Part shown: positions 8,221 to 49,175 of the stretch, one piece after another
How positions within the stretch are numbered: the first letter of the stretch is position 1
Layout of the letters: every line of letters starts with the position of its first letter
Source: Escherichia phage P818
Sequence record: ON062054.1
Reading direction: 5' to 3' (one strand)
DNA: 49,175 nt
The notes under the pieces: model-generated
Database searches by the model: none
The model's input: the letters and a program-made list of their open reading frames with translations, nothing else
Told to the model about the DNA's origin: nothing
Position numbers and translations under genes: made by a program

Positions 8221-8256
8221 GATGTTTAGCCTTTCGTGCGATTTATCGAAGTTTCA

Positions 8257-24056: not shown

Positions 24057-24575
24057 TCAAATCTTATCAAGTACGCTTTTCACGGCATCCTCAATCGTTT
24101 GAGTGTCATTCACTACATTGCTTACGTTGACCTCAGCCGCCTTGTCGATACCAATGTCTTTGCCTACGAATCCGGCGTTGATAAGGTTGGACGCAGCTAA
24201 CTGATATTTCTGTTCAATAATTACTGAGTCGATGAACTCCATTACCTCAGAGAATCCAGGCGACGCGCGCCAGCTTTGGATCGCACCGGAGGTAACGCCG
24301 CAATAAAGCTGGAAGCCGTTGAGCGTGAACACTCGCGGCTTGTGCACTAAGTTCTCGGTGACAACACCCTGGAAGCTCGCCGTTTCGATTGCCTTGATTG
24401 CCTGGTCCTCGGCCCATGAGAAATACTTAACCGCCAGGTTGAATACAGTCTCAGGTGTCATTGGATGGCGATGGTTCAGATTGGCAATGTCGCCATACTT
24501 TTTATTGTATAGCTCTTTGAAGTTACCGATTCGAACCTTCTCGTTAGCGTGACTGGTGAAGTTTTCGTCTTTCAT
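24057..24575 (-). CDS. Putative terminase small subunit
   Basis: 172 aa immediately upstream of large terminase; GGGGG RBS. Confidence 0.5.
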   Translation of the reverse strand: MKDENFTSHANEKVRIGNFKELYNKKYGDIANLNHRHPMTPETVFNLAVKYFSWAEDQAIKAIETASFQGVVTENLVHKPRVFTLNGFQLYCGVTSGAIQSWRASPGFSEVMEFIDSVIIEQKYQLAASNLINAGFVGKDIGIDKAAEVNVSNVVNDTQTIEDAVKSVLDKI

Positions 24576-25438: not shown

Positions 25439-25670
25439 AGATACTTTCTCCGTTTTCACGTTTTCCAACCAGCCCCTTAAGATAACCAGCAATCCAAATA
25501 AAACGAGAGCGCGATATAATGGTCGCCACGGCCTCGTGGTGCTTGGTAATAATTGAGGCAACCAGTTTATCATCCTTTCGCTCTTTCTTATCTAGAGCGT
25601 CATACGCTGCGTTTAATTGCTTGGCCTTGGCCTTTACTGCGTTCATCTGCGGATCAGTTAATCCAAACAT
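25431..25670 (-). CDS. Hypothetical small protein
   Basis: 79 aa; GAGGTGAAAGAG RBS. Confidence 0.5.
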   Translation of the reverse strand: MFGLTDPQMNAVKAKAKQLNAAYDALDKKERKDDKLVASIITKHHEAVATIISRSRFIWIAGYLKGLVGKRENGESIYE

Positions 25671-25810
25671 TTCTCTTTCACCTCTTTGTATTGTTTAACC
25701 GCACCGCCGAGAACATTACGCGCTGCCTCGGCTGATTCCTTCGTATCGTGAACGGTGCGATGAATCTCTTTTCCGAACTTGCCTACTCCGTATGTGTGAA
25801 TGTAAATCAT
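25658..25810 (-). CDS. Hypothetical small protein (50 aa)
   Basis: Not in the ORF track (under 60 aa); ATGA overlap with upstream gene, open frame to TAA. Confidence 0.35.
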   Translation of the reverse strand: MIYIHTYGVGKFGKEIHRTVHDTKESAEAARNVLGGAVKQYKEVKEKCLD

Positions 25811-26019
25811 TCTTCAATCACCTTATATTCATTTTCGCTAATGCTGATTTCGTCGCCAACATTCACAAACTCTGTTTCACGGATAGCCTGGATTGAAAGG
25901 TCGCCGTCCTTGTATTTACCTGACACCTCTACCACGTCGCCAACCTTAAAGCCACACTCTTCCAGTGTAAGCGCGTCGTCATCAGTAACATAGTCAACGT
26001 CGATAATTTCAATTTTCAT
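25807..26019 (-). CDS. Highly acidic small protein (DNA-mimic candidate)
   Basis: 70 aa with about 20 Asp/Glu versus 6 Lys/Arg; GAGGAAG RBS; downstream of motif copy 4. Confidence 0.55.
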   Translation of the reverse strand: MKIEIIDVDYVTDDDALTLEECGFKVGDVVEVSGKYKDGDLSIQAIRETEFVNVGDEISISENEYKVIEE

Positions 26020-26074
26020 TTCTGCTTCCTCGTTCGTTTCGATGGGGTAACTATACAGCTACCCCGATTATGAG

Positions 26075-26093
26075 TTTTAACAAAAAGTGCTAT
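26075..26093 (-). promoter_or_regulatory. Dyad motif copy 4
   Basis: Minus-sense TAGCACTTTTTGTTAAAA overlapping upstream stop; 22 bp then TATAGT inside a hairpin, then TACCCCATCGAAACGAA box. Confidence 0.6.
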
Positions 26094-26485
26094 CGCTTAT
26101 AATTTCGCGCAATATCTTTCATTGCTCGCCATGCGATAAAGCAGAACATGCCAGGCTCGGTAAAGCGAAGTTTTCCGTACTGGCGGCAAAGTCTGCGGTG
26201 TCGGCGCTTATCACTAATGCGATCTACTTTCTTTTCAGTGACAACCAGGCGTCGTGGGCCTTCGAATAACTCAAATGTAACGGCTACACCACTCGCAAGG
26301 CTTATATTAAACTTGTTTGCTTTTTGCACTGCTTTCCATGTCACACCCGCGACGCTATCCTTAACATCAACCACATTTAAGTAGCGATTTGGTACTCGCT
26401 TAGCATCGTATACCTGACCGACCTGAAAGTAACCCTTTAACACCGGAGCCAGATGTGGCTTAATTTTGATGCAGCGTAATTTCAT
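26090..26485 (-). CDS. Hypothetical protein
   Basis: 131 aa; GAAGGGGAA RBS. Confidence 0.55.
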   Translation of the reverse strand: MKLRCIKIKPHLAPVLKGYFQVGQVYDAKRVPNRYLNVVDVKDSVAGVTWKAVQKANKFNISLASGVAVTFELFEGPRRLVVTEKKVDRISDKRRHRRLCRQYGKLRFTEPGMFCFIAWRAMKDIARNYKR

Positions 26486-26647: not shown

Positions 26648-26818
26648 TTAAATACCCTCTTTAATCTTCTCAACCGCAGATGTGAAAGCATCCAGGTTTA
26701 CATATTCATCAAACAATTCCCACGCGTAAACTTGTGACTCTGGTGTTTGCACCTCATCCCCAAGTAACTCATGAAGACCAATTATCGCCTTGCATTCTTC
26801 TTCTGTTAGGTTAATCAT
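26648..26818 (-). CDS. Hypothetical small acidic protein (56 aa)
   Basis: Not in the ORF track; AGGAAAG RBS; directly downstream of motif copy 5. Confidence 0.4.
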   Translation of the reverse strand: MINLTEEECKAIIGLHELLGDEVQTPESQVYAWELFDEYVNLDAFTSAVEKIKEGI

Positions 26819-26874
26819 CTTTCTTTCCTCTCGTTTGGTATGAGCTAACTATAACAAAACCCGCCGGGGCGGGT

Positions 26875-26894
26875 TTAGCAATTCGTGCTATTTA
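26875..26894 (-). promoter_or_regulatory. Dyad motif copy 5
   Basis: Minus-sense TAA-ATAGCACGAATTGCTAAA, then terminator-like hairpin CCCGCCCCGGCGGG plus T-run in the 22-bp spacer, then TATAGT. Confidence 0.6.
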
Positions 26895-28592: not shown

Positions 28593-28657
28593 GGTGACAT
28601 CCTCAGTTGTTTGTGTTCACTTGACAGGAGACACTATAGCTAATGTCTCCGAGCAAG

Positions 28658-30010: not shown

Positions 30011-30217
30011 TCATTGCTTCTCCGCCTCGTCAGCCGCCAGGATTAACGCCGCCGCTAACTTGCGGGCCGCGTCAGGTGAATATTGCATAAGTGTTTGGCC
30101 GTCGCCGTAGTCGTCAGGATCGAAGTCCAGGTTTACAATATGCCCGCGAACGGTTCCCATCGTGACACTGACCTCAGCTTGGTCAAAGTGAACATCGTCA
30201 ATACGTACAGTTTCCAT
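30011..30217 (-). CDS. Acidic small protein
   Basis: 68 aa (start at METVRIDD, 7 nt after GAGGAA); about 14 Asp/Glu versus 5 basic. Confidence 0.5.
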   Translation of the reverse strand: METVRIDDVHFDQAEVSVTMGTVRGHIVNLDFDPDDYGDGQTLMQYSPDAARKLAAALILAADEAEKQ

Positions 30218-30272
30218 AATCATTTCCTCTTCGTTGTTGATAGGGTAATCATAGCTGACTACCCGATTTATT

Positions 30273-30292
30273 GTTTAGCAATTCGTGCTATT
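30273..30292 (-). promoter_or_regulatory. Dyad motif copy 9
   Basis: Minus-sense AATAGCACGAATTGCTAAAC overlapping stop; 22 bp then TATGAT then TACCCTATCAACAACGAAG box. Confidence 0.6.
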
Positions 30293-32249: not shown

Positions 32250-32300
32250 TGACCGATCAGGTGTGATTCGCTATTGTTACCTCATCGAAACGAAGGAGAT

Positions 32301-32735
32301 ATGAAGATGAAGAACGGCGTAATTTACAAGCACAGTGACGGAACTACTCGGTTCGTCACGACCTCAGGCCGGATGTATATTTGGGCTTACGGAGCCTGGC
32401 GGTTCAAGGTACAGATGCATGAGGCGACGTATAATATGTTCCTCCGCGCTGCACGACTCAAAGATAACAAGGTGTTCGTTGCGAAGAGTCGCAAGGTATT
32501 CATGGATAATCGCGTCGCGTTCGATCCTATTGACTACCAGGCGGTTGAGTTCACTGGTCTAAGGTTGAGTAAAATTCGGTTGTTGCGCAGCGAACAGATT
32601 GCAATGATTCAGCAAAATTCGGCTATTGCGCACGCCACGGAAGCACGACATCGCCTCCTGACTGGTTATCAGCCCATCATCACGCCGACGCCGTTTTACG
32701 TGCATAAGCAACGACCACCGAAAATCCATAAATAG
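32301..32735 (+). CDS. Hypothetical early protein
   Basis: 144 aa; start refined to ATG after AAGGAG RBS. Confidence 0.55.
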   Translation: MKMKNGVIYKHSDGTTRFVTTSGRMYIWAYGAWRFKVQMHEATYNMFLRAARLKDNKVFVAKSRKVFMDNRVAFDPIDYQAVEFTGLRLSKIRLLRSEQIAMIQQNSAIAHATEARHRLLTGYQPIITPTPFYVHKQRPPKIHK

Positions 32736-33040: not shown

Positions 33041-33256
33041 GTGAATCAAGATAATTTCTGGAGCCGCCACCGCGCGGCACTTGAAGCCGGACTAAATGAA
33101 GAGTGGGCGCTCAAGGTTGCTTACGGATGCATCGAACTCGATGACGCATTGGGCGTCATGGATATGGATCTGGAAAGCGAAAGCAACCAGTCAGTGTACG
33201 GGATCGGGGATGATTTCGACTACCGCTTAAAATTTGATGACGGAATACCGTTCTAA
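33041..33256 (+). CDS. Small acidic protein with SSB C-terminal-tail mimic (ends FDDGIPF)
   Basis: 71 aa; GTG start 6 nt after GGAG; acidic; last residues KFDDGIPF versus SSB FDDDIPF. Confidence 0.55.
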   Translation: MNQDNFWSRHRAALEAGLNEEWALKVAYGCIELDDALGVMDMDLESESNQSVYGIGDDFDYRLKFDDGIPF

Positions 33257-33505: not shown

Positions 33506-33663
33506 TGCTCAAGCCATCCGATTTGAACTACTACGACAACGACACGATCGCGAAGCTCTCAGGTCAAGGATGGTATCCATGGAGCACCAGCGCTCAGGTT
33601 GAAGACTTGCAAAGCAGTTACGAAATCACACAGAAAGCAATTGAGAAGGCTAAGAAGAAATGA
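33505..33663 (+). CDS. Hypothetical small protein (52 aa)
   Basis: Not in the ORF track; TAATG coupling upstream, ATGA coupling downstream; AAGGTGA RBS. Confidence 0.35.
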   Translation: MLKPSDLNYYDNDTIAKLSGQGWYPWSTSAQVEDLQSSYEITQKAIEKAKKK

Positions 33664-34229
33664 ATAGAAAAAGAAGTCCAGACGGAAAATTTTCTGGTGA
33701 TCCGCTACTACCTGGAGGTTTTCATAATTGCAACTCATGCGGAATTAAAAAGGAGGCTGACGATAAAAACTTTAGAACAATAAATAAAGGAAAAACATGC
33801 GAGAGCCTAAGCAAAACTTGCAGAAAATGCGAGTATCAAAAAGGAAAGGATAAACACGCAAGGAACATGAAAAACCCTGAATTTGCAGATGCTAGAAGGG
33901 AAAGGTGCAGGAACTGGAGGAGCAACAACAGAAGTAAGGTGGCGCTTAAAAATTATCAAGCAATAGATAAAAAGAAAGGACTTACATGCACCATGACAAT
34001 TGATGATGTTGAGGAGTTGCAGTCAATGCCATGCTACTATTGCGGAGATACGGATCGGGTTGGTGCTGACAGGATTGACAACTCACTTGCTCACACGCGC
34101 AAAAACTGCCTTCCATGTTGCCCTGATTGTAATATCTGTAGGAGTAACACTTTTTCAGTTGATGAGATGATGGTGATAGGCAAAGCGATAAGACTCGTAA
34201 AGAAATCAAGAAATAGCACGAATTGCTAA
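33660..34229 (+). CDS. HNH-type endonuclease / zinc-finger protein
   Basis: 189 aa; multiple CxxC pairs and RIDNSLAHTRKNCLPCCPDCN motif. Confidence 0.6.
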   Translation: MNRKRSPDGKFSGDPLLPGGFHNCNSCGIKKEADDKNFRTINKGKTCESLSKTCRKCEYQKGKDKHARNMKNPEFADARRERCRNWRSNNRSKVALKNYQAIDKKKGLTCTMTIDDVEELQSMPCYYCGDTDRVGADRIDNSLAHTRKNCLPCCPDCNICRSNTFSVDEMMVIGKAIRLVKKSRNSTNC

Positions 34230-38042: not shown

Positions 38043-38216
38043 CTAGTCAGCGATAATAAATTCAACCAGCGCACCATCAATAGGCGCAAAAATCCACGTC
38101 ATATCGTCGCCGTAAATCTTGTAGTTACCGTCACCTTGATACTCGGCGCTGTAAGGATTGTTAACAGTGAAAGGAAGGGTTTTAGATGTGTTCTTAACGC
38201 AAAATAATTTAACCAT
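38043..38216 (-). CDS. Hypothetical small protein (57 aa)
   Basis: Not in the ORF track; AGAGGA RBS; directly downstream of motif copy 13. Confidence 0.4.
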   Translation of the reverse strand: MVKLFCVKNTSKTLPFTVNNPYSAEYQGDGNYKIYGDDMTWIFAPIDGALVEFIIAD

Positions 38217-38267: not shown

Positions 38268-38289
38268 GTTTTAACAAAAAGTGCTATTT
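38268..38289 (-). promoter_or_regulatory. Dyad motif copy 13
   Basis: Minus-sense TAA-ATAGCACTTTTTGTTAAAAC; hairpin AGCGCC...GGCGCT in 22-bp spacer; TATATT. Confidence 0.6.
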
Positions 38290-40702: not shown

Positions 40703-40757
40703 GATGATTCCTCGTCTCGTTGGTATGAAAGAAGTATACCCGCGCGGTGGCGGGTAT

Positions 40758-40777
40758 GTTTAGCAATTCGTGCTATT
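40758..40777 (-). promoter_or_regulatory. Dyad motif copy 14
   Basis: Minus-sense TAA-TAGCACGAATTGCTAAAC; hairpin CCCGCCACCGCGCGGG in 22-bp spacer; TATACT. Confidence 0.6.
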
Positions 40778-44600: not shown

Positions 44601-45074
44601 ATGAATGCAACTGATAAGCGTACTCTTAACGGCAATAACGGAACTATCCGCACAGAAGATAAGAAGCAGCGTAAGCGACCGTCAGGTTACTATGTTCTCA
44701 AGGATGAAGTAAAGGCCGGATTAAGAGCGCGACTTGATATTGTATTTGAGTTCTACGGCAGCAAGGCGAACATGGCTAAGCAATTAAAGGTTACTCGACA
44801 GGCCGTTGAAGAATGGTTTAAGCGTGGAATGATGTCGGCACGCGGCGCTCAACTGGCGCACAACAGATATAAGCGAACTGGCGAAGGGTTCCGCGCTACA
44901 TTCTGCCGCCCTGATCTGCAATTCGACGGGAACGGCAAGCCGCTAACGCTGCGTTGCAAAAAGCGTCACATGCTGCGCGTCGTCACCGAGGCTGAACTAG
45001 CCACTAAGCCTGAATGTCGCTCATGGCGAAAAATTAAAGCAGCAAACGAAGCAGCACGGAAAGCTAAAGAATGA
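44601..45074 (+). CDS. HTH DNA-binding protein (Cro/YdaS-like), candidate regulator
   Basis: 157 aa; HTH-like segment SKANMAKQLKVTRQAVEEWFKRG; basic C-terminal half. Confidence 0.55.
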   Translation: MNATDKRTLNGNNGTIRTEDKKQRKRPSGYYVLKDEVKAGLRARLDIVFEFYGSKANMAKQLKVTRQAVEEWFKRGMMSARGAQLAHNRYKRTGEGFRATFCRPDLQFDGNGKPLTLRCKKRHMLRVVTEAELATKPECRSWRKIKAANEAARKAKE

Positions 45075-45105: not shown

Positions 45106-45654
45106 CTATCTATCTCCGTCACACCCAAACTCACCATGATAATAATTACTGGCTTTTAAGTACGCTTCACGCGCCGACTCCTTTGTGGTATGCCTTCCTA
45201 GCCATATTTTTTTATTATTAACCCATATCCACGCCGTGTACTTCCCTGTTTGCTTGCAGAATCCAACGCCTTTTACTCCTGATGTATTGTGAGATGGTTT
45301 TTTCATATTTCTATTGTTCTCAGATGATGACGCTTCCCTTAGGTTTTCTATCCTATTGTCAGTCCTGATCCCGTTTTTATGATCTATATACTTAGAAGGC
45401 CATTCACCTTTACAAAGCGCCCATGAAACCCTATGGCATTTAACGTCGAATCCGAAAAATCTGAAAACCTTATAACCAGATTTATGGACCGTTCCGGCCT
45501 CATCTCCAGATTTAACCCTATTAGATGTGCTTTTTACCCAAATTATAACTCCGTTGTCGTATTTAAGGTAATTCCTAAGCATATCAATACTAATCAATGA
45601 CTCTTTTGCCTTCATTAAATCAAAGTCTTTGCTCATTTCATTTTCCTCATTCAT
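45106..45654 (-). CDS. HNH endonuclease with AP2-like domain (copy 3)
   Basis: 182 aa; YIDHKNGIRTDNRIENLREASSSENNRN motif. Confidence 0.8.
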   Translation of the reverse strand: MNEENEMSKDFDLMKAKESLISIDMLRNYLKYDNGVIIWVKSTSNRVKSGDEAGTVHKSGYKVFRFFGFDVKCHRVSWALCKGEWPSKYIDHKNGIRTDNRIENLREASSSENNRNMKKPSHNTSGVKGVGFCKQTGKYTAWIWVNNKKIWLGRHTTKESAREAYLKASNYYHGEFGCDGDR

Positions 45655-46668: not shown

Positions 46669-46692
46669 TCCTTTGTTATGATACAATGCTCT

Positions 46693-46710
46693 TTAGCAAT
46701 TCGTGCTAAA
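46693..46710. promoter_or_regulatory. Dyad motif copy 17 (perfect palindrome TTTAGCA-ATTCG-TGCTAAA)
   Basis: Only perfect copy; lies between an extended -10-like TGATACAAT (46679-46687) and the tail fiber RBS. Confidence 0.6.
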
Positions 46711-46733: not shown

Positions 46734-49175
46734 ATGGCAATTTATGACTTAGGAGCTGCATCTCTAGCCGCAAATGGCGAGGTAGCTGGTGTTGGGACAA
46801 CGTGGAAAGCGCCGCTTACACTGATTCGTGTAGGTGCTACAATTGTGTTTAAAACTGAACCTGTACAGATTTACACAATCTCAGAAATTATCAGCGACAC
46901 TCGGATTAATGTTTACAACCCTAATGGTGAAACAGTTCCTGCTGGCACTGGTTACGCGATTCTTGCTCACGATGGGATTACTGTTCAGGGGTTAGCTCAG
47001 GATGTTGCGGAGACTTTGCGTTACTATCAGTCACGCGAAACTGAGGTTGCAGATGCTGTTGATGCTTTTAACAATTTTGACTCTGCGGATTTTGAATCAA
47101 AAGTAGCTCAGGTAAACACACAGCATGGCGACGTTGTTACTATTGGAGTCCAGGTTGCAAATGATGCCGTTCAGGTTTCAAATAATGCTTCATCAGCACA
47201 AATTAACGCTACCAATGCATCATCTGCCGCCGATAGAGCAGAAGCAGCCGCAAACTCCGTGTCTGGATCCTTAACCTTAAACTTCTCAGATGGAGGGACA
47301 GTAGAGTCTACAAATCAGCAGGTTTTATACATCAATGGAAGTGATGTTAGGTCTTATGTCTGGACTGGGTCATTTCCAAAGACGATTACAGCCGGTTCAA
47401 CTCCTGAAACGTCTGGTGGCGTTGACTTAGGCGCGTGGGTTAGTGTTGGTGATGCATCATTAAGGAGTGAGCTACTTACGCCATCATCAGGTATAAAAGT
47501 TGATTCAACCAATATTAATATAGCCGCCCAGCATCCTGCTACTAAAGACATCCCGTTAAACGCATTTGCGAGCCAGATGGTTAGTTTACTTAATTTTCAG
47601 GGGGTGGTAGCAGATGGCATAACCGATACACGAGCCGGGGTACAAGCCGCGATAGACGCGTGTGCCCTCGCTGGGGTTACGTTATATATCCCAGACGGTG
47701 TGTATGCTTTCGGAAACTTCTTCACCCAACCTTCTAATTCCAAGCTAGTTTTCGGTGAAAATGCGTGGTTTAAACTACTAAATAACACCACCTGGCCGGG
47801 ACTTGGTGGTATAGGTCACTTCCACAACACTGGAACTAACTATAATGATTTCCTTAATACGGACGGTGAAACTATTAAGTATGTAGAAGCTACCAATGTA
47901 GTCACTGTAGGAATGAAGCTAGACTGTAACAATATTGAGGGTGAAAACGGCATTTCATCGTCATGTGGTTCTAACATCCGCCATATCCGCCCTATAGTTA
48001 AGAATACAGTGCACACAAACACCGCTCTTGGCGGTAGGGCGTTTCAGATAGAAGGTGAGCTAAACCAAGATATTATAGTATCAGATGCCACTATTATTGA
48101 TTGCTCTATTGGGTGCAATAGTCAAGGTTTAGCAGGCAGCACAACTGCCAATACCCGCGCGGTAACTTACGACGGTATTTTCATGAAAAATGTTGGAGTA
48201 CCATTTAACATCGACGGGCAGGTATCAAACCCAGAAAACGCAGACGGCAGAGTGCATTCAGTAACCGCATACAATGTAACATTGCATAATTGCGGGGGGC
48301 CGAGAGCACCATTTGCGTCCCAATTAGACGGCGGCATCATTTGTGGGGATAGGGGGGCTGGTTTAGCCGTATATGGTCTTCGCTTGGTAAATGATGATTC
48401 TTATGGTGGTATAGGTGCGGTGTTTAGAGGGGTTATTTATAACGTAGCTATACACGACGCGGATTTAACAGCCCCTTATATTAGTGCCATTGTCGACCAC
48501 ACTCCGCCGGGGTTTGGCTCACCATCGCCGGCAGCATTAGGTGGTTTTGTGTCGACAAGGAACGTTAAAGTAAACGCGAATATTGACTACATAGCTAATG
48601 GGCCTAACAACAGTATAGGTCCTCACAGCCTTAGATTAGATATAGATATGGCTAAGGCATCTATTACAACATTGTTTGGTTCGAGCATAGCCACGGACAA
48701 TACCACGTACGCTATGGTGGAAATACTGGATACCAACACCGGAACAAGTAGCGGGTATCGGTCCTTTGGAGACATATACCGTGAGGGTAATTCACCGGAT
48801 GTTTGTATAAAAAGAAAGGATTCAATCGGTCCTATAGTCCCGATTGATGCGTCCGGCGCGAGTCTAACCTTTACCCCTAATGGGACCCAACGTTTTGTTA
48901 AAAATGGAAATACCGTCACAATATCTATCAATGTAACTTACCCAACCACAGGGGACTCTCGCTCTGCGACCATAGCAGGTATTCCGGTTCCTGGAGTAGC
49001 AGGAGTAAATTATTGTGGCATTGGTACTGTTCTTAACGGTGCCGCTGTTGGTACTATTGCGGTGGTTAAAGGCGGGGAAAATTTTATAAGACTTTTAACT
49101 CCAACCGGCACCAATACCCTAAACAGCGATTTATCTGGTAAAGATATTTCTATAACACTTACGTATATGTTCTGA
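46734..49175 (+). CDS. Tail fiber protein
   Basis: 813 aa from ATG 9 nt after AGGAG; Gly/Thr/Asn-rich repetitive central and C-terminal region; stop is the last codon of the window. Confidence 0.65.
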   Translation: MAIYDLGAASLAANGEVAGVGTTWKAPLTLIRVGATIVFKTEPVQIYTISEIISDTRINVYNPNGETVPAGTGYAILAHDGITVQGLAQDVAETLRYYQSRETEVADAVDAFNNFDSADFESKVAQVNTQHGDVVTIGVQVANDAVQVSNNASSAQINATNASSAADRAEAAANSVSGSLTLNFSDGGTVESTNQQVLYINGSDVRSYVWTGSFPKTITAGSTPETSGGVDLGAWVSVGDASLRSELLTPSSGIKVDSTNINIAAQHPATKDIPLNAFASQMVSLLNFQGVVADGITDTRAGVQAAIDACALAGVTLYIPDGVYAFGNFFTQPSNSKLVFGENAWFKLLNNTTWPGLGGIGHFHNTGTNYNDFLNTDGETIKYVEATNVVTVGMKLDCNNIEGENGISSSCGSNIRHIRPIVKNTVHTNTALGGRAFQIEGELNQDIIVSDATIIDCSIGCNSQGLAGSTTANTRAVTYDGIFMKNVGVPFNIDGQVSNPENADGRVHSVTAYNVTLHNCGGPRAPFASQLDGGIICGDRGAGLAVYGLRLVNDDSYGGIGAVFRGVIYNVAIHDADLTAPYISAIVDHTPPGFGSPSPAALGGFVSTRNVKVNANIDYIANGPNNSIGPHSLRLDIDMAKASITTLFGSSIATDNTTYAMVEILDTNTGTSSGYRSFGDIYREGNSPDVCIKRKDSIGPIVPIDASGASLTFTPNGTQRFVKNGNTVTISINVTYPTTGDSRSATIAGIPVPGVAGVNYCGIGTVLNGAAVGTIAVVKGGENFIRLLTPTGTNTLNSDLSGKDISITLTYMF

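Follow-up and report, generated by a model that had tools for sequence, protein, structure and literature searches.

CarS, an antirepressor of Myxococcus xanthus, is an acidic protein of SH3 topology that mimics operator DNA and sequesters a DNA-recognition helix (PMC2926617). Ocr (T7 gp0.3), gp5.9, Arn, Ugi/p56 and AcrIIA4/AcrIF2, which act stoichiometrically, are small and strongly acidic, and are encoded by promoter-proximal, non-structural genes. Two genes of Escherichia phage P818 (ON062054.1) resemble this second group in size, charge and position, and were studied here: open reading frame (ORF) A, at 25807..26019, and ORF B, at 30011..30217, in the whole stretch of DNA that was analysed (49,175 nt, the window). 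An earlier note made from the sequence had singled out both products as candidate DNA mimics or anti-defence proteins. Its counts proved exact (70 amino acids (aa) with 20 Asp/Glu, 6 Lys/Arg and a net charge of -14 for ORF A; 68 aa with 14 acidic against 5 basic residues, net -9, for ORF B), and both genes lie on the minus strand, which it had not given. P818 belongs to the Drexlerviridae (T1-like siphoviruses), and its closest annotated relatives are vB-EcoS-XT34 (genus Nouzillyvirus; XT34 in short), p111 and PH1062. No function is known for about half of the genes of T1-like phages, which are common contaminants and candidates for therapy.

ORF A and ORF B are genuine genes, located within a block of small minus-strand genes that runs from ~31.6 kb to ~24.6 kb and is bounded by the small terminase gene (24057..24575). 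The only named genes inside this block encode a polynucleotide kinase and a deoxynucleoside monophosphate kinase/P-loop NTPase. Gene calling by codon usage, with the window's long ORFs as the training set, gave 74 genes; ORF A (33.1) and ORF B (18.6) both scored well on the minus strand, and the longer opposite-strand ORFs that cover them were rejected as artefacts by the same scoring. The ATG of ORF A is preceded at 5 nt by a Shine-Dalgarno-like GAGGAAG (26025..26031, minus strand), as read from the sequence, and its stop codon shares an ATGA (25807-25810) with the start codon of the gene that follows. The product contains D9 E11 K5 R1 (29% D/E, isoelectric point (pI) 4.05) and, with a charge of -0.200 per residue, is more acidic for its length than any other protein of the phage (z = -3.24, 74 genes). 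For a random 70-mer of proteome composition, the chance of a net charge of -14 or below is 7e-4.

Full-length homologues of ORF A were found by tblastn in 453 phage records, at identities down to ~43%, and the hosts of these phages are mainly Klebsiella (271) and Escherichia (133), with Shigella, Salmonella and Citrobacter in addition. Pairwise dN/dS values of 0.03-0.19 show that the gene is under purifying selection. When 1.84 billion representative proteins were searched exhaustively with a profile, only 13 clusters appeared at E < 1e-10, and since all of these are 55-84 aa long, ORF A belongs to a phage-restricted single-domain family, phrog_5684. Its members have no larger domain context and no enzyme motifs, and every member examined was acidic, with net charges from -3 to -14. 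Neither ORF A nor ORF B had a significant sequence match in Pfam, NCBIfam or PDB, and a literature search on the PHROG identifiers and on anti-restriction proteins of T1-like phages gave nothing specific to either family. In T1 itself, tblastn with both proteins found no orthologue of either.

In every phage examined, ORF A is the first gene after a gap of ~72 nt, ~1-2 kb upstream of the small terminase gene. The ATGA overlap with the next gene is also constant, and the identity of that next gene differs from phage to phage. The 75 nt upstream of ORF A are more conserved than the protein, and have the consensus AATAGCAC-N3-TTGYTAAAAC, 6-8 nt, GGGGTA, 4-6 nt, TATAGT, TACCCC, ATCGAAACGAA. Klebsiella phage FZ10, for example, retains this stretch upstream of a homologue that is ~49% identical to ORF A over its full length.

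In different Drexlerviridae, this one cassette of promoter, hairpin and leader is followed by small acidic proteins of three unrelated families, phrog_5684 (ORF A), phrog_10456 and phrog_7411. The T1 protein ST61 (locus L002, 6607-6816), an uncharacterised acidic protein, and its Bas13 orthologue Bas13_0077 (L017, 6326-6535) belong to phrog_10456; both have 69 aa and a net charge of -14, and both occupy the ORF A slot behind the same cassette, so that ST61 is the positional analogue of ORF A in T1. The Bas12 relative (L009, 3102-3326; 74 aa, net -7), also acidic, uncharacterised and without similarity to ORF A, is found two genes downstream of the cassette. Bas01_0072 and Bas02_0071, of phrog_7411, have 59 and 81 aa and net charges of -4 and -7; they too are uncharacterised and stand first behind the cassette. 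No sequence similarity was detected between ORF A and ST61 or phrog_7411 (hmmsearch E ~0.6-1.4). That three unrelated families, alike in size and in the sign of their charge, share one slot suggests functional convergence and selection for a small acidic product from the cassette promoter rather than for a particular fold.

The promoter of the cassette is one copy of a motif that recurs through the window, ATAGCAC-N3-TTGYTAAA, followed after ~18-19 nt by TATAGT or TATGAT. At no more than three mismatches, the motif was matched 20 times in the window, 12 times perfectly, against 3.55 +/- 1.8 times in shuffled sequences. ORF A and ORF B each lie 60-75 nt downstream of a copy as the first gene after it, so the earlier claim that both follow motif promoters directly holds: the copies are ATAGCACTTTTTGTTAAA at 26076..26093 for ORF A and ATAGCACGAATTGCTAAA at 30274..30291 for ORF B, both on the minus strand. 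Starts of the 18-nt motif are located at 1245, 26076, 26874, 28234, 28659, 29529, 30274, 38270, 40759, 42073, 44571 and 46692 on the minus strand and at 2757, 3576, 32233, 32732 and 34213 on the plus strand. About 17 copies are followed by a good -10 hexamer 18-19 nt on and then by a conserved leader, (C)ATCGAAACGA(A). Apart from one match with three mismatches, at 8225, the motif is missing from the head and tail genes (~4.8-24 kb). The distance from TTGYTA to the -10 element is 22 nt, a non-canonical spacing for sigma-70. No Drexlerviridae expression data were found in a literature search, and the early timing that the earlier note assigned to both genes is inferred from their position and promoter type.

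The motif contains an inverted repeat, TAGCA-N5-TGCTA, whose 5-bp arms are 10 bp apart from centre to centre, one helical turn, which makes it operator-like; it looks like an operator for a dimeric protein that overlaps the -35 region. In the copy ahead of ORF A the repeat reads TAGCA-N5-TGTTA, and TGCTA is found in most other copies. The copy at 46692-46710 is palindromic and can be read on both strands. Most motif promoters carry a second inverted repeat, with arms that bracket or abut the -10 element; its position is fixed and its sequence varies by promoter and by phage. Ahead of ORF A this is GGGGTAGCT-GTAT-AGTTACCCC (26044..26065, minus strand), which encloses the -10-like TATAGT (26050-26055), and ahead of ORF B it is GGGTAGTCA-GCTA-TGATTACCC (30243..30264, minus strand), which encloses TATGAT (30248-30253). 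Further examples are found at ~28625-28650, 26857-26876 and 40735-40760, among others, and upstream of the ORF A homologues in loci L001-L017. The six-base arms around the -10 element covary between phages (GGGGTA/TACCCC, AGGGCA/TGCCCT and GAGGAC/GTCCTC), as assessed by a rough custom scan, with P818 and XT34 out of register in the MAFFT alignment. The expected start site is downstream of the 5' arm, so that a hairpin would require read-through RNA or single-stranded DNA. Two copies of the repeat, at 26857-26876 and near 40750, look like true terminators.

The structural model of ORF A is an SH3-like beta-barrel, a fold class that we assign with moderate confidence. In the Tempevirinae and Webervirus, the homologues keep four residues, C22, H35, C42 and C65 (..ECG.., DGHF, SYCV and DECEVVEE; L003, L004, L005, L008, L011-L014 and L016), of which the P818-type version retains C22 alone; these may form a metal site or a disulfide in that branch of the family. 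Several apparent leads to an identity were discarded. A PDB match to BURRH (E 7e-14) was the sum of weak hits across a repeat protein, with no single stretch over the threshold, and proteins of 286-2269 aa from the representative search matched only in short V/G/D-rich repeats and are therefore compositional matches, not homologues. The label "methyltransferase type 11" (FZ10_1, MK521904) is a mis-annotation, as ORF A has 70 aa and no methyltransferase Pfam match and the S-adenosylmethionine-dependent methyltransferase domain is well over 100 aa long. The label "AbrB family transcriptional regulator-like" (JLBYU38_44, OK272481) is likewise unsupported, as ORF A is strongly acidic and has no Pfam match at E <= 1, to SpoVT-AbrB or any other domain, and "Eaa-like", unsupported for the ORF A homologues, is the label of the adjoining gene.

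ORF B (minus strand, phrog_13316) encodes a 68-aa acidic protein when started from the ATG at 30217 (D10 E4 K2 R3, 21% D/E, net -9, pI 4.18). An alternative in-frame ATG is present at 30223; the shorter product is preferred because GAGGAA lies 7 nt from the ATG at 30217 and 1 nt from that at 30223, and because the homologues have 67-68 aa. The charge of ORF B is not exceptional by itself: at z = -2.1 (P ~0.02), ~0.6 such proteins are expected among the 26 small genes. Homologues were found in 71 phage records and 162 protein clusters. Their presence in unrelated myoviruses of 137-143 kb points to a mobile, accessory-like gene. The best-conserved part is the C-terminal helix, ARKLAAALILAA(D/E)EAE. 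The protein was modelled confidently with four beta-strands and a C-terminal helix, a predicted fold class resembling PUR/PC4 with the charge reversed. No PC4 or PurA Pfam match was obtained, and the acidic residues are spread through the strands; the likeness is one of fold, and nucleic-acid binding is improbable.

The earlier note had likened the two proteins to DNA mimics that inhibit restriction enzymes or nucleoid proteins, and had named efficiency of plating (EOP) on hosts with defence systems as a check. Published data of this kind are available for homologues: EOP of 13 Drexlerviridae of the BASEL collection on six restriction-modification (RM) and five abortive-infection systems, together with recognition-site counts (PMC8594841, S1 Data, S5 Table). 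With tblastn, ORF A and ORF B were mapped in the region ahead of the terminase genes, which was covered by the last 5-8 kb for 12 BASEL records and by the whole genome for Bas10, so that absence here means absence from the stretch searched. Homologues of ORF A were present in Bas03 to Bas11, and were not found in the stretches searched of Bas01, Bas02, Bas12 and Bas13; homologues of ORF B were present in Bas01 (72% identity), Bas03 (76%) and, in part, Bas02. Identity of the BASEL homologues to the proteins of P818 is 43-64% for ORF A and 72-76% for ORF B, and the former, with net charges of -7 to -12, are less acidic; the result therefore applies to homologues and not to P818 itself.

With seven EcoKI sites each, the ORF A carriers Bas10 and Bas11 plated on EcoKI at 1.0e-4 and 5.5e-5, respectively. 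Bas02, without ORF A and also with seven sites, plated at 2.2e-5, and Bas01, with ORF B, without ORF A and with three sites, at 1.3e-4. Resistance to EcoKI was confined to phages with 0-1 sites; it follows the number of sites and not the presence of ORF A. ORF A carriers with many EcoRI or EcoRV sites were restricted to between 1e-5 and below 1e-13, all ORF A carriers were reduced on one or both type III systems (EOP ~1e-1 to 1e-5), and Bas01 with its ORF B homologue was restricted by all six RM systems. Homologues of ORF A and ORF B thus confer no Ocr-like protection, and an anti-restriction role of the Ocr type is unlikely, since type I, II and III systems restrict carriers as strongly as non-carriers. 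These natural-variation data contradict the restriction-enzyme part of the earlier interpretation, which is therefore only partly supported, and they indicate that anti-restriction activity is not predicted by acidity and small size alone. The plating data also showed no relation between the presence of either gene and sensitivity to RexAB, PifA, Fun/Z, Old or Tin. Sensitivity to P2 Old, a marker of RecBCD inhibition, was looked at separately and no inference was drawn: ORF A is found in the sensitive Bas03, Bas08 and Bas11 and the partly sensitive Bas10, and equally in the insensitive Bas04-07. The ORF B carriers Bas01-03 are all sensitive but form one clade, and Bas08 and Bas11 are sensitive without ORF B in their last 5-8 kb.

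We tentatively favour a model in which ORF A and ORF B are stoichiometric acidic decoys for a basic DNA-binding partner, and regard it as possible rather than probable. Both would be accessory genes of the pre-terminase block, each being the first cistron that the host RNA polymerase transcribes from a strongly conserved promoter of the phage. ORF A, as a single-domain SH3-like barrel with a high density of carboxylates, would act non-catalytically and in stoichiometric amounts, its acidic surface occupying the basic nucleic-acid-binding surface of the partner and so keeping the partner off DNA; CarS, gp5.9, Arn and Ocr would be its functional models. ORF B might act in the same way as a probable dimer, in which a PUR/PC4-type face for single-stranded DNA (ssDNA) has been turned acidic. 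Both the mode of binding and the existence and nature of a target are inferred here. The partner of ORF A would be a host factor conserved across the Enterobacteriaceae or a basic DNA-binding protein of the phage, and would not be a classical restriction enzyme (type I, II or III). That ORF A is so widespread and evolves so slowly favours such a target over a strain-specific defence, and the presence of the tightly conserved family in most sequenced Drexlerviridae suggests that the target is probably important for infection of Enterobacteriaceae.

The DNA-mimic profile ascribed to these proteins in the earlier note thus stands in part. The acidity of ORF A is far outside that of the proteome, the gene is conserved and promoter-proximal, the unrelated proteins of the slot are acidic as well, and CarS provides a precedent; however, no sequence or fold relation to known mimics was found, and the net charges of -3 to -14 within the family mean that the extreme charge is specific to one lineage. 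Several observations weigh against the decoy model. The extreme charge of ORF A is not kept, as some members carry merely -3 to -5. Few acidic positions are invariant (E21, D28 and E64), and it is instead the hydrophobic and glycine core that is invariant. The model is of moderate confidence only, with a predicted local distance difference test score (pLDDT) below 50 for residues 36-40 and 47-55. Occurrence in 453 records, from phages with hosts of several genera, suggests a core accessory function more than strain-specific counter-defence. Small acidic proteins are common in phages, and many of them are not inhibitors.

An extended form of the decoy model seems rather improbable to us. It holds that the Drexlerviridae have a dedicated expression slot, the hyper-conserved cassette ~2 kb upstream of the terminase genes, which has recruited at least three unrelated acidic families of ~70 aa, and that ORF A founds a class of SH3-fold DNA mimics or decoys in phages. 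This class would neutralise a single basic and conserved DNA-binding protein, which would be a nucleoid or repair factor of the host or, by analogy with CarS, the phage's own Cro-like regulator of the TAGCA-N5-TGCTA promoters. Comparison of 17 loci revealed no conserved gene partner adjoining ORF A, and the basic upstream neighbour at 26090..26485 (net +20) was rejected as the protein that ORF A neutralises, as it is present only in P818 and XT34 (2 of the 17 loci). If the acidic proteins of the slot are decoys for one DNA-binding protein, their convergence offers a handle for finding the target, by exchanging ST61, ORF A and the phrog_7411 protein for one another. The convergent slot is the most useful lead obtained, because its function is directly testable by such gene swaps.

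Counter-defence by direct binding, with or without DNA mimicry and aimed at a non-RM immune system absent from E. coli K-12 (e.g., a DNA-sensing or nuclease-based one), is the alternative that survives best, although we consider it doubtful. Replacement by non-orthologous genes, as seen in the slot, is characteristic of counter-defence hot spots, ORF B has been transferred between families of phages, and a broad action is reported for anti-defence proteins that mimic DNA (bioRxiv 10.1101/2025.06.06.658234). However, counter-defence genes are usually patchy and fast-evolving, whereas ORF A evolves slowly and occurs in most Drexlerviridae records, from phages of Escherichia, Klebsiella, Salmonella and Citrobacter. 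Neither protein matched a solved structure, by sequence or fold, or a named family, in searches that did not include a dedicated anti-defence library, and the lack of a relation between either gene and sensitivity to the five abortive-infection systems also speaks against this alternative.

It is also conceivable, if unlikely, that the proteins have no inhibitory role and are ordinary accessory proteins, such as adaptors or chaperones in DNA metabolism or packaging, whose acidity is incidental. Their location between the nucleotide kinases and the terminase fits this, as do the conserved positions of ORF A, which are mainly core hydrophobics and glycines, the variation of net charge from -3 to -14 in its family, and the charge of ORF B, which is within chance for the 26 small genes. 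Yet all examined members of the ORF A family are acidic, the charge of ORF A has a P of 7e-4 under proteome composition, and unrelated proteins of the slot are acidic too, with ST61 of T1 equal to ORF A in net charge (-14) at a size of 69 aa.

A role within the phage appears still less probable, namely that ORF A is a CarS-like anti-regulator that binds a basic Cro-like regulator (44601..45074, net +21), or another basic phage protein, and thereby modulates the TAGCA-N5-TGCTA promoters. The operator-like repeat with its spacing of one helical turn would suit such a regulator, the 44601..45074 protein is very basic and has a sub-threshold similarity to Cro/YdaS helix-turn-helix proteins, the broad conservation of ORF A fits a phage-intrinsic role, and CarS is a precedent for the sequestration of a DNA-recognition helix by an acidic SH3-like protein (PMC2926617). 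The case is entirely circumstantial, and the 44601..45074 protein as the binder of the repeat is speculative. The promoter motif is also kept in T1, Bas01, Bas02, Bas12 and Bas13, where no ORF A was found (retention of the regulator being judged from the annotations of T1 and Bas10 only), and PDB searches found no sequence similarity to CarS.

The remaining alternative, a classical Ocr/ArdA-like DNA mimic that blocks type I RM (and BREX-type) enzymes at genome entry, is very improbable and for the homologues already largely refuted: ORF A is small, promoter-proximal and charged at -0.20 per residue, but the carriers Bas10 and Bas11 are restricted by EcoKI like the non-carriers Bas01 and Bas02, carriers are also hit by EcoRI, EcoRV and the type III systems and Bas01, with ORF B, by six systems, and no similarity to Ocr, ArdA, Arn, KlcA or a solved mimic was found.

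The 50-aa gene coupled translationally to ORF A (25658-25810, minus strand) belongs to phrog_3955; its product corresponds to an N-terminal module that is fused elsewhere in the Drexlerviridae to varied C-terminal extensions (e.g., 108 aa in XT34), and there the module usually follows the ORF A slot at a distance of one or two genes. Two further small acidic ORFs were noted. One (26648..26818, minus strand; 56 aa, net -10) is the first after the motif promoter at 26874-26891, and its product has no PHROG or Pfam match. The other (33041..33256, plus strand; 71 aa, net -11) belongs to phrog_9085 and has a homologue in T1, annotated ST6 (NC_005833, positions 47118-47327). Very basic proteins are encoded at 26090-26485 (minus strand, net +20), 44601-45074 (plus strand, net +21), 32274-32735 (plus strand, net +15) and 33660-34229 (plus strand, net +16); none of the four has a significant family match, and only 44601..45074 shows the sub-threshold Cro/YdaS similarity. 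This last gene lies between the helicase and primase genes, like the "transcriptional regulator" ST23 of T1, and a homing endonuclease gene with HNH_3 and AP2 domains (45106-45654, minus strand) is inserted between it and the primase gene.

Compared with the known systems, ORF A and ORF B show no homology to Ocr, ArdA, Arn, KlcA, gp5.9, Gam, Ugi, p56, the Acr mimics or CarS, and in the libraries searched, among which there was no dedicated anti-defence library, no known DNA mimic or protein of anti-defence was found to be related to them in sequence or fold. Both families are already in PHROG, as uncharacterised entries, and if their members are inhibitors, their predicted folds would be ones not yet seen among phage mimics; the folds of Ocr, gp5.9, Arn, Ugi/p56 and AcrIIA4/AcrIF2 differ from both. 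For ORF B, the nearest likeness is to the PUR repeat, PC4, Sub1, YdbC and the PC4-like protein of phage T5. These are basic proteins, in which aromatic and basic side chains of the sheet contact ssDNA or RNA, whereas ORF B has a net charge of -9.

A separate stand-alone SH3-like protein of the Drexlerviridae is DUF7244 (ST14 of T1, ~57 aa), which sits in the lysis module (PMC13164509). Its gene in P818 is 38043..38216 (minus strand; Pfam E 4e-30), with the motif promoter at 38270 directly before it. ORF A itself is not a DUF7244 protein, as it has no PF23896 match and an hhalign probability of 0.3%, and DUF7244 differs from it in its holin-adjoining locus and its weak acidity (net -3). Dense Asp/Glu together with a low pI, the mark of a DNA mimic, are found in ORF A; the charge of ORF B is unexceptional. 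The charge density of ORF A lies within the range for Ocr and gp5.9. In its modelled architecture the protein resembles CarS, which has no sequence similarity to it in PDB sequence searches and is likewise small, single-domain and acidic; CarS is non-catalytic, as ORF A is proposed to be, and has a five-stranded antiparallel SH3-like barrel, the fold tentatively modelled for ORF A. If the proteins of the acidic slot are indeed decoys for one DNA-binding protein, the SH3-fold class would join the short list of DNA mimics.

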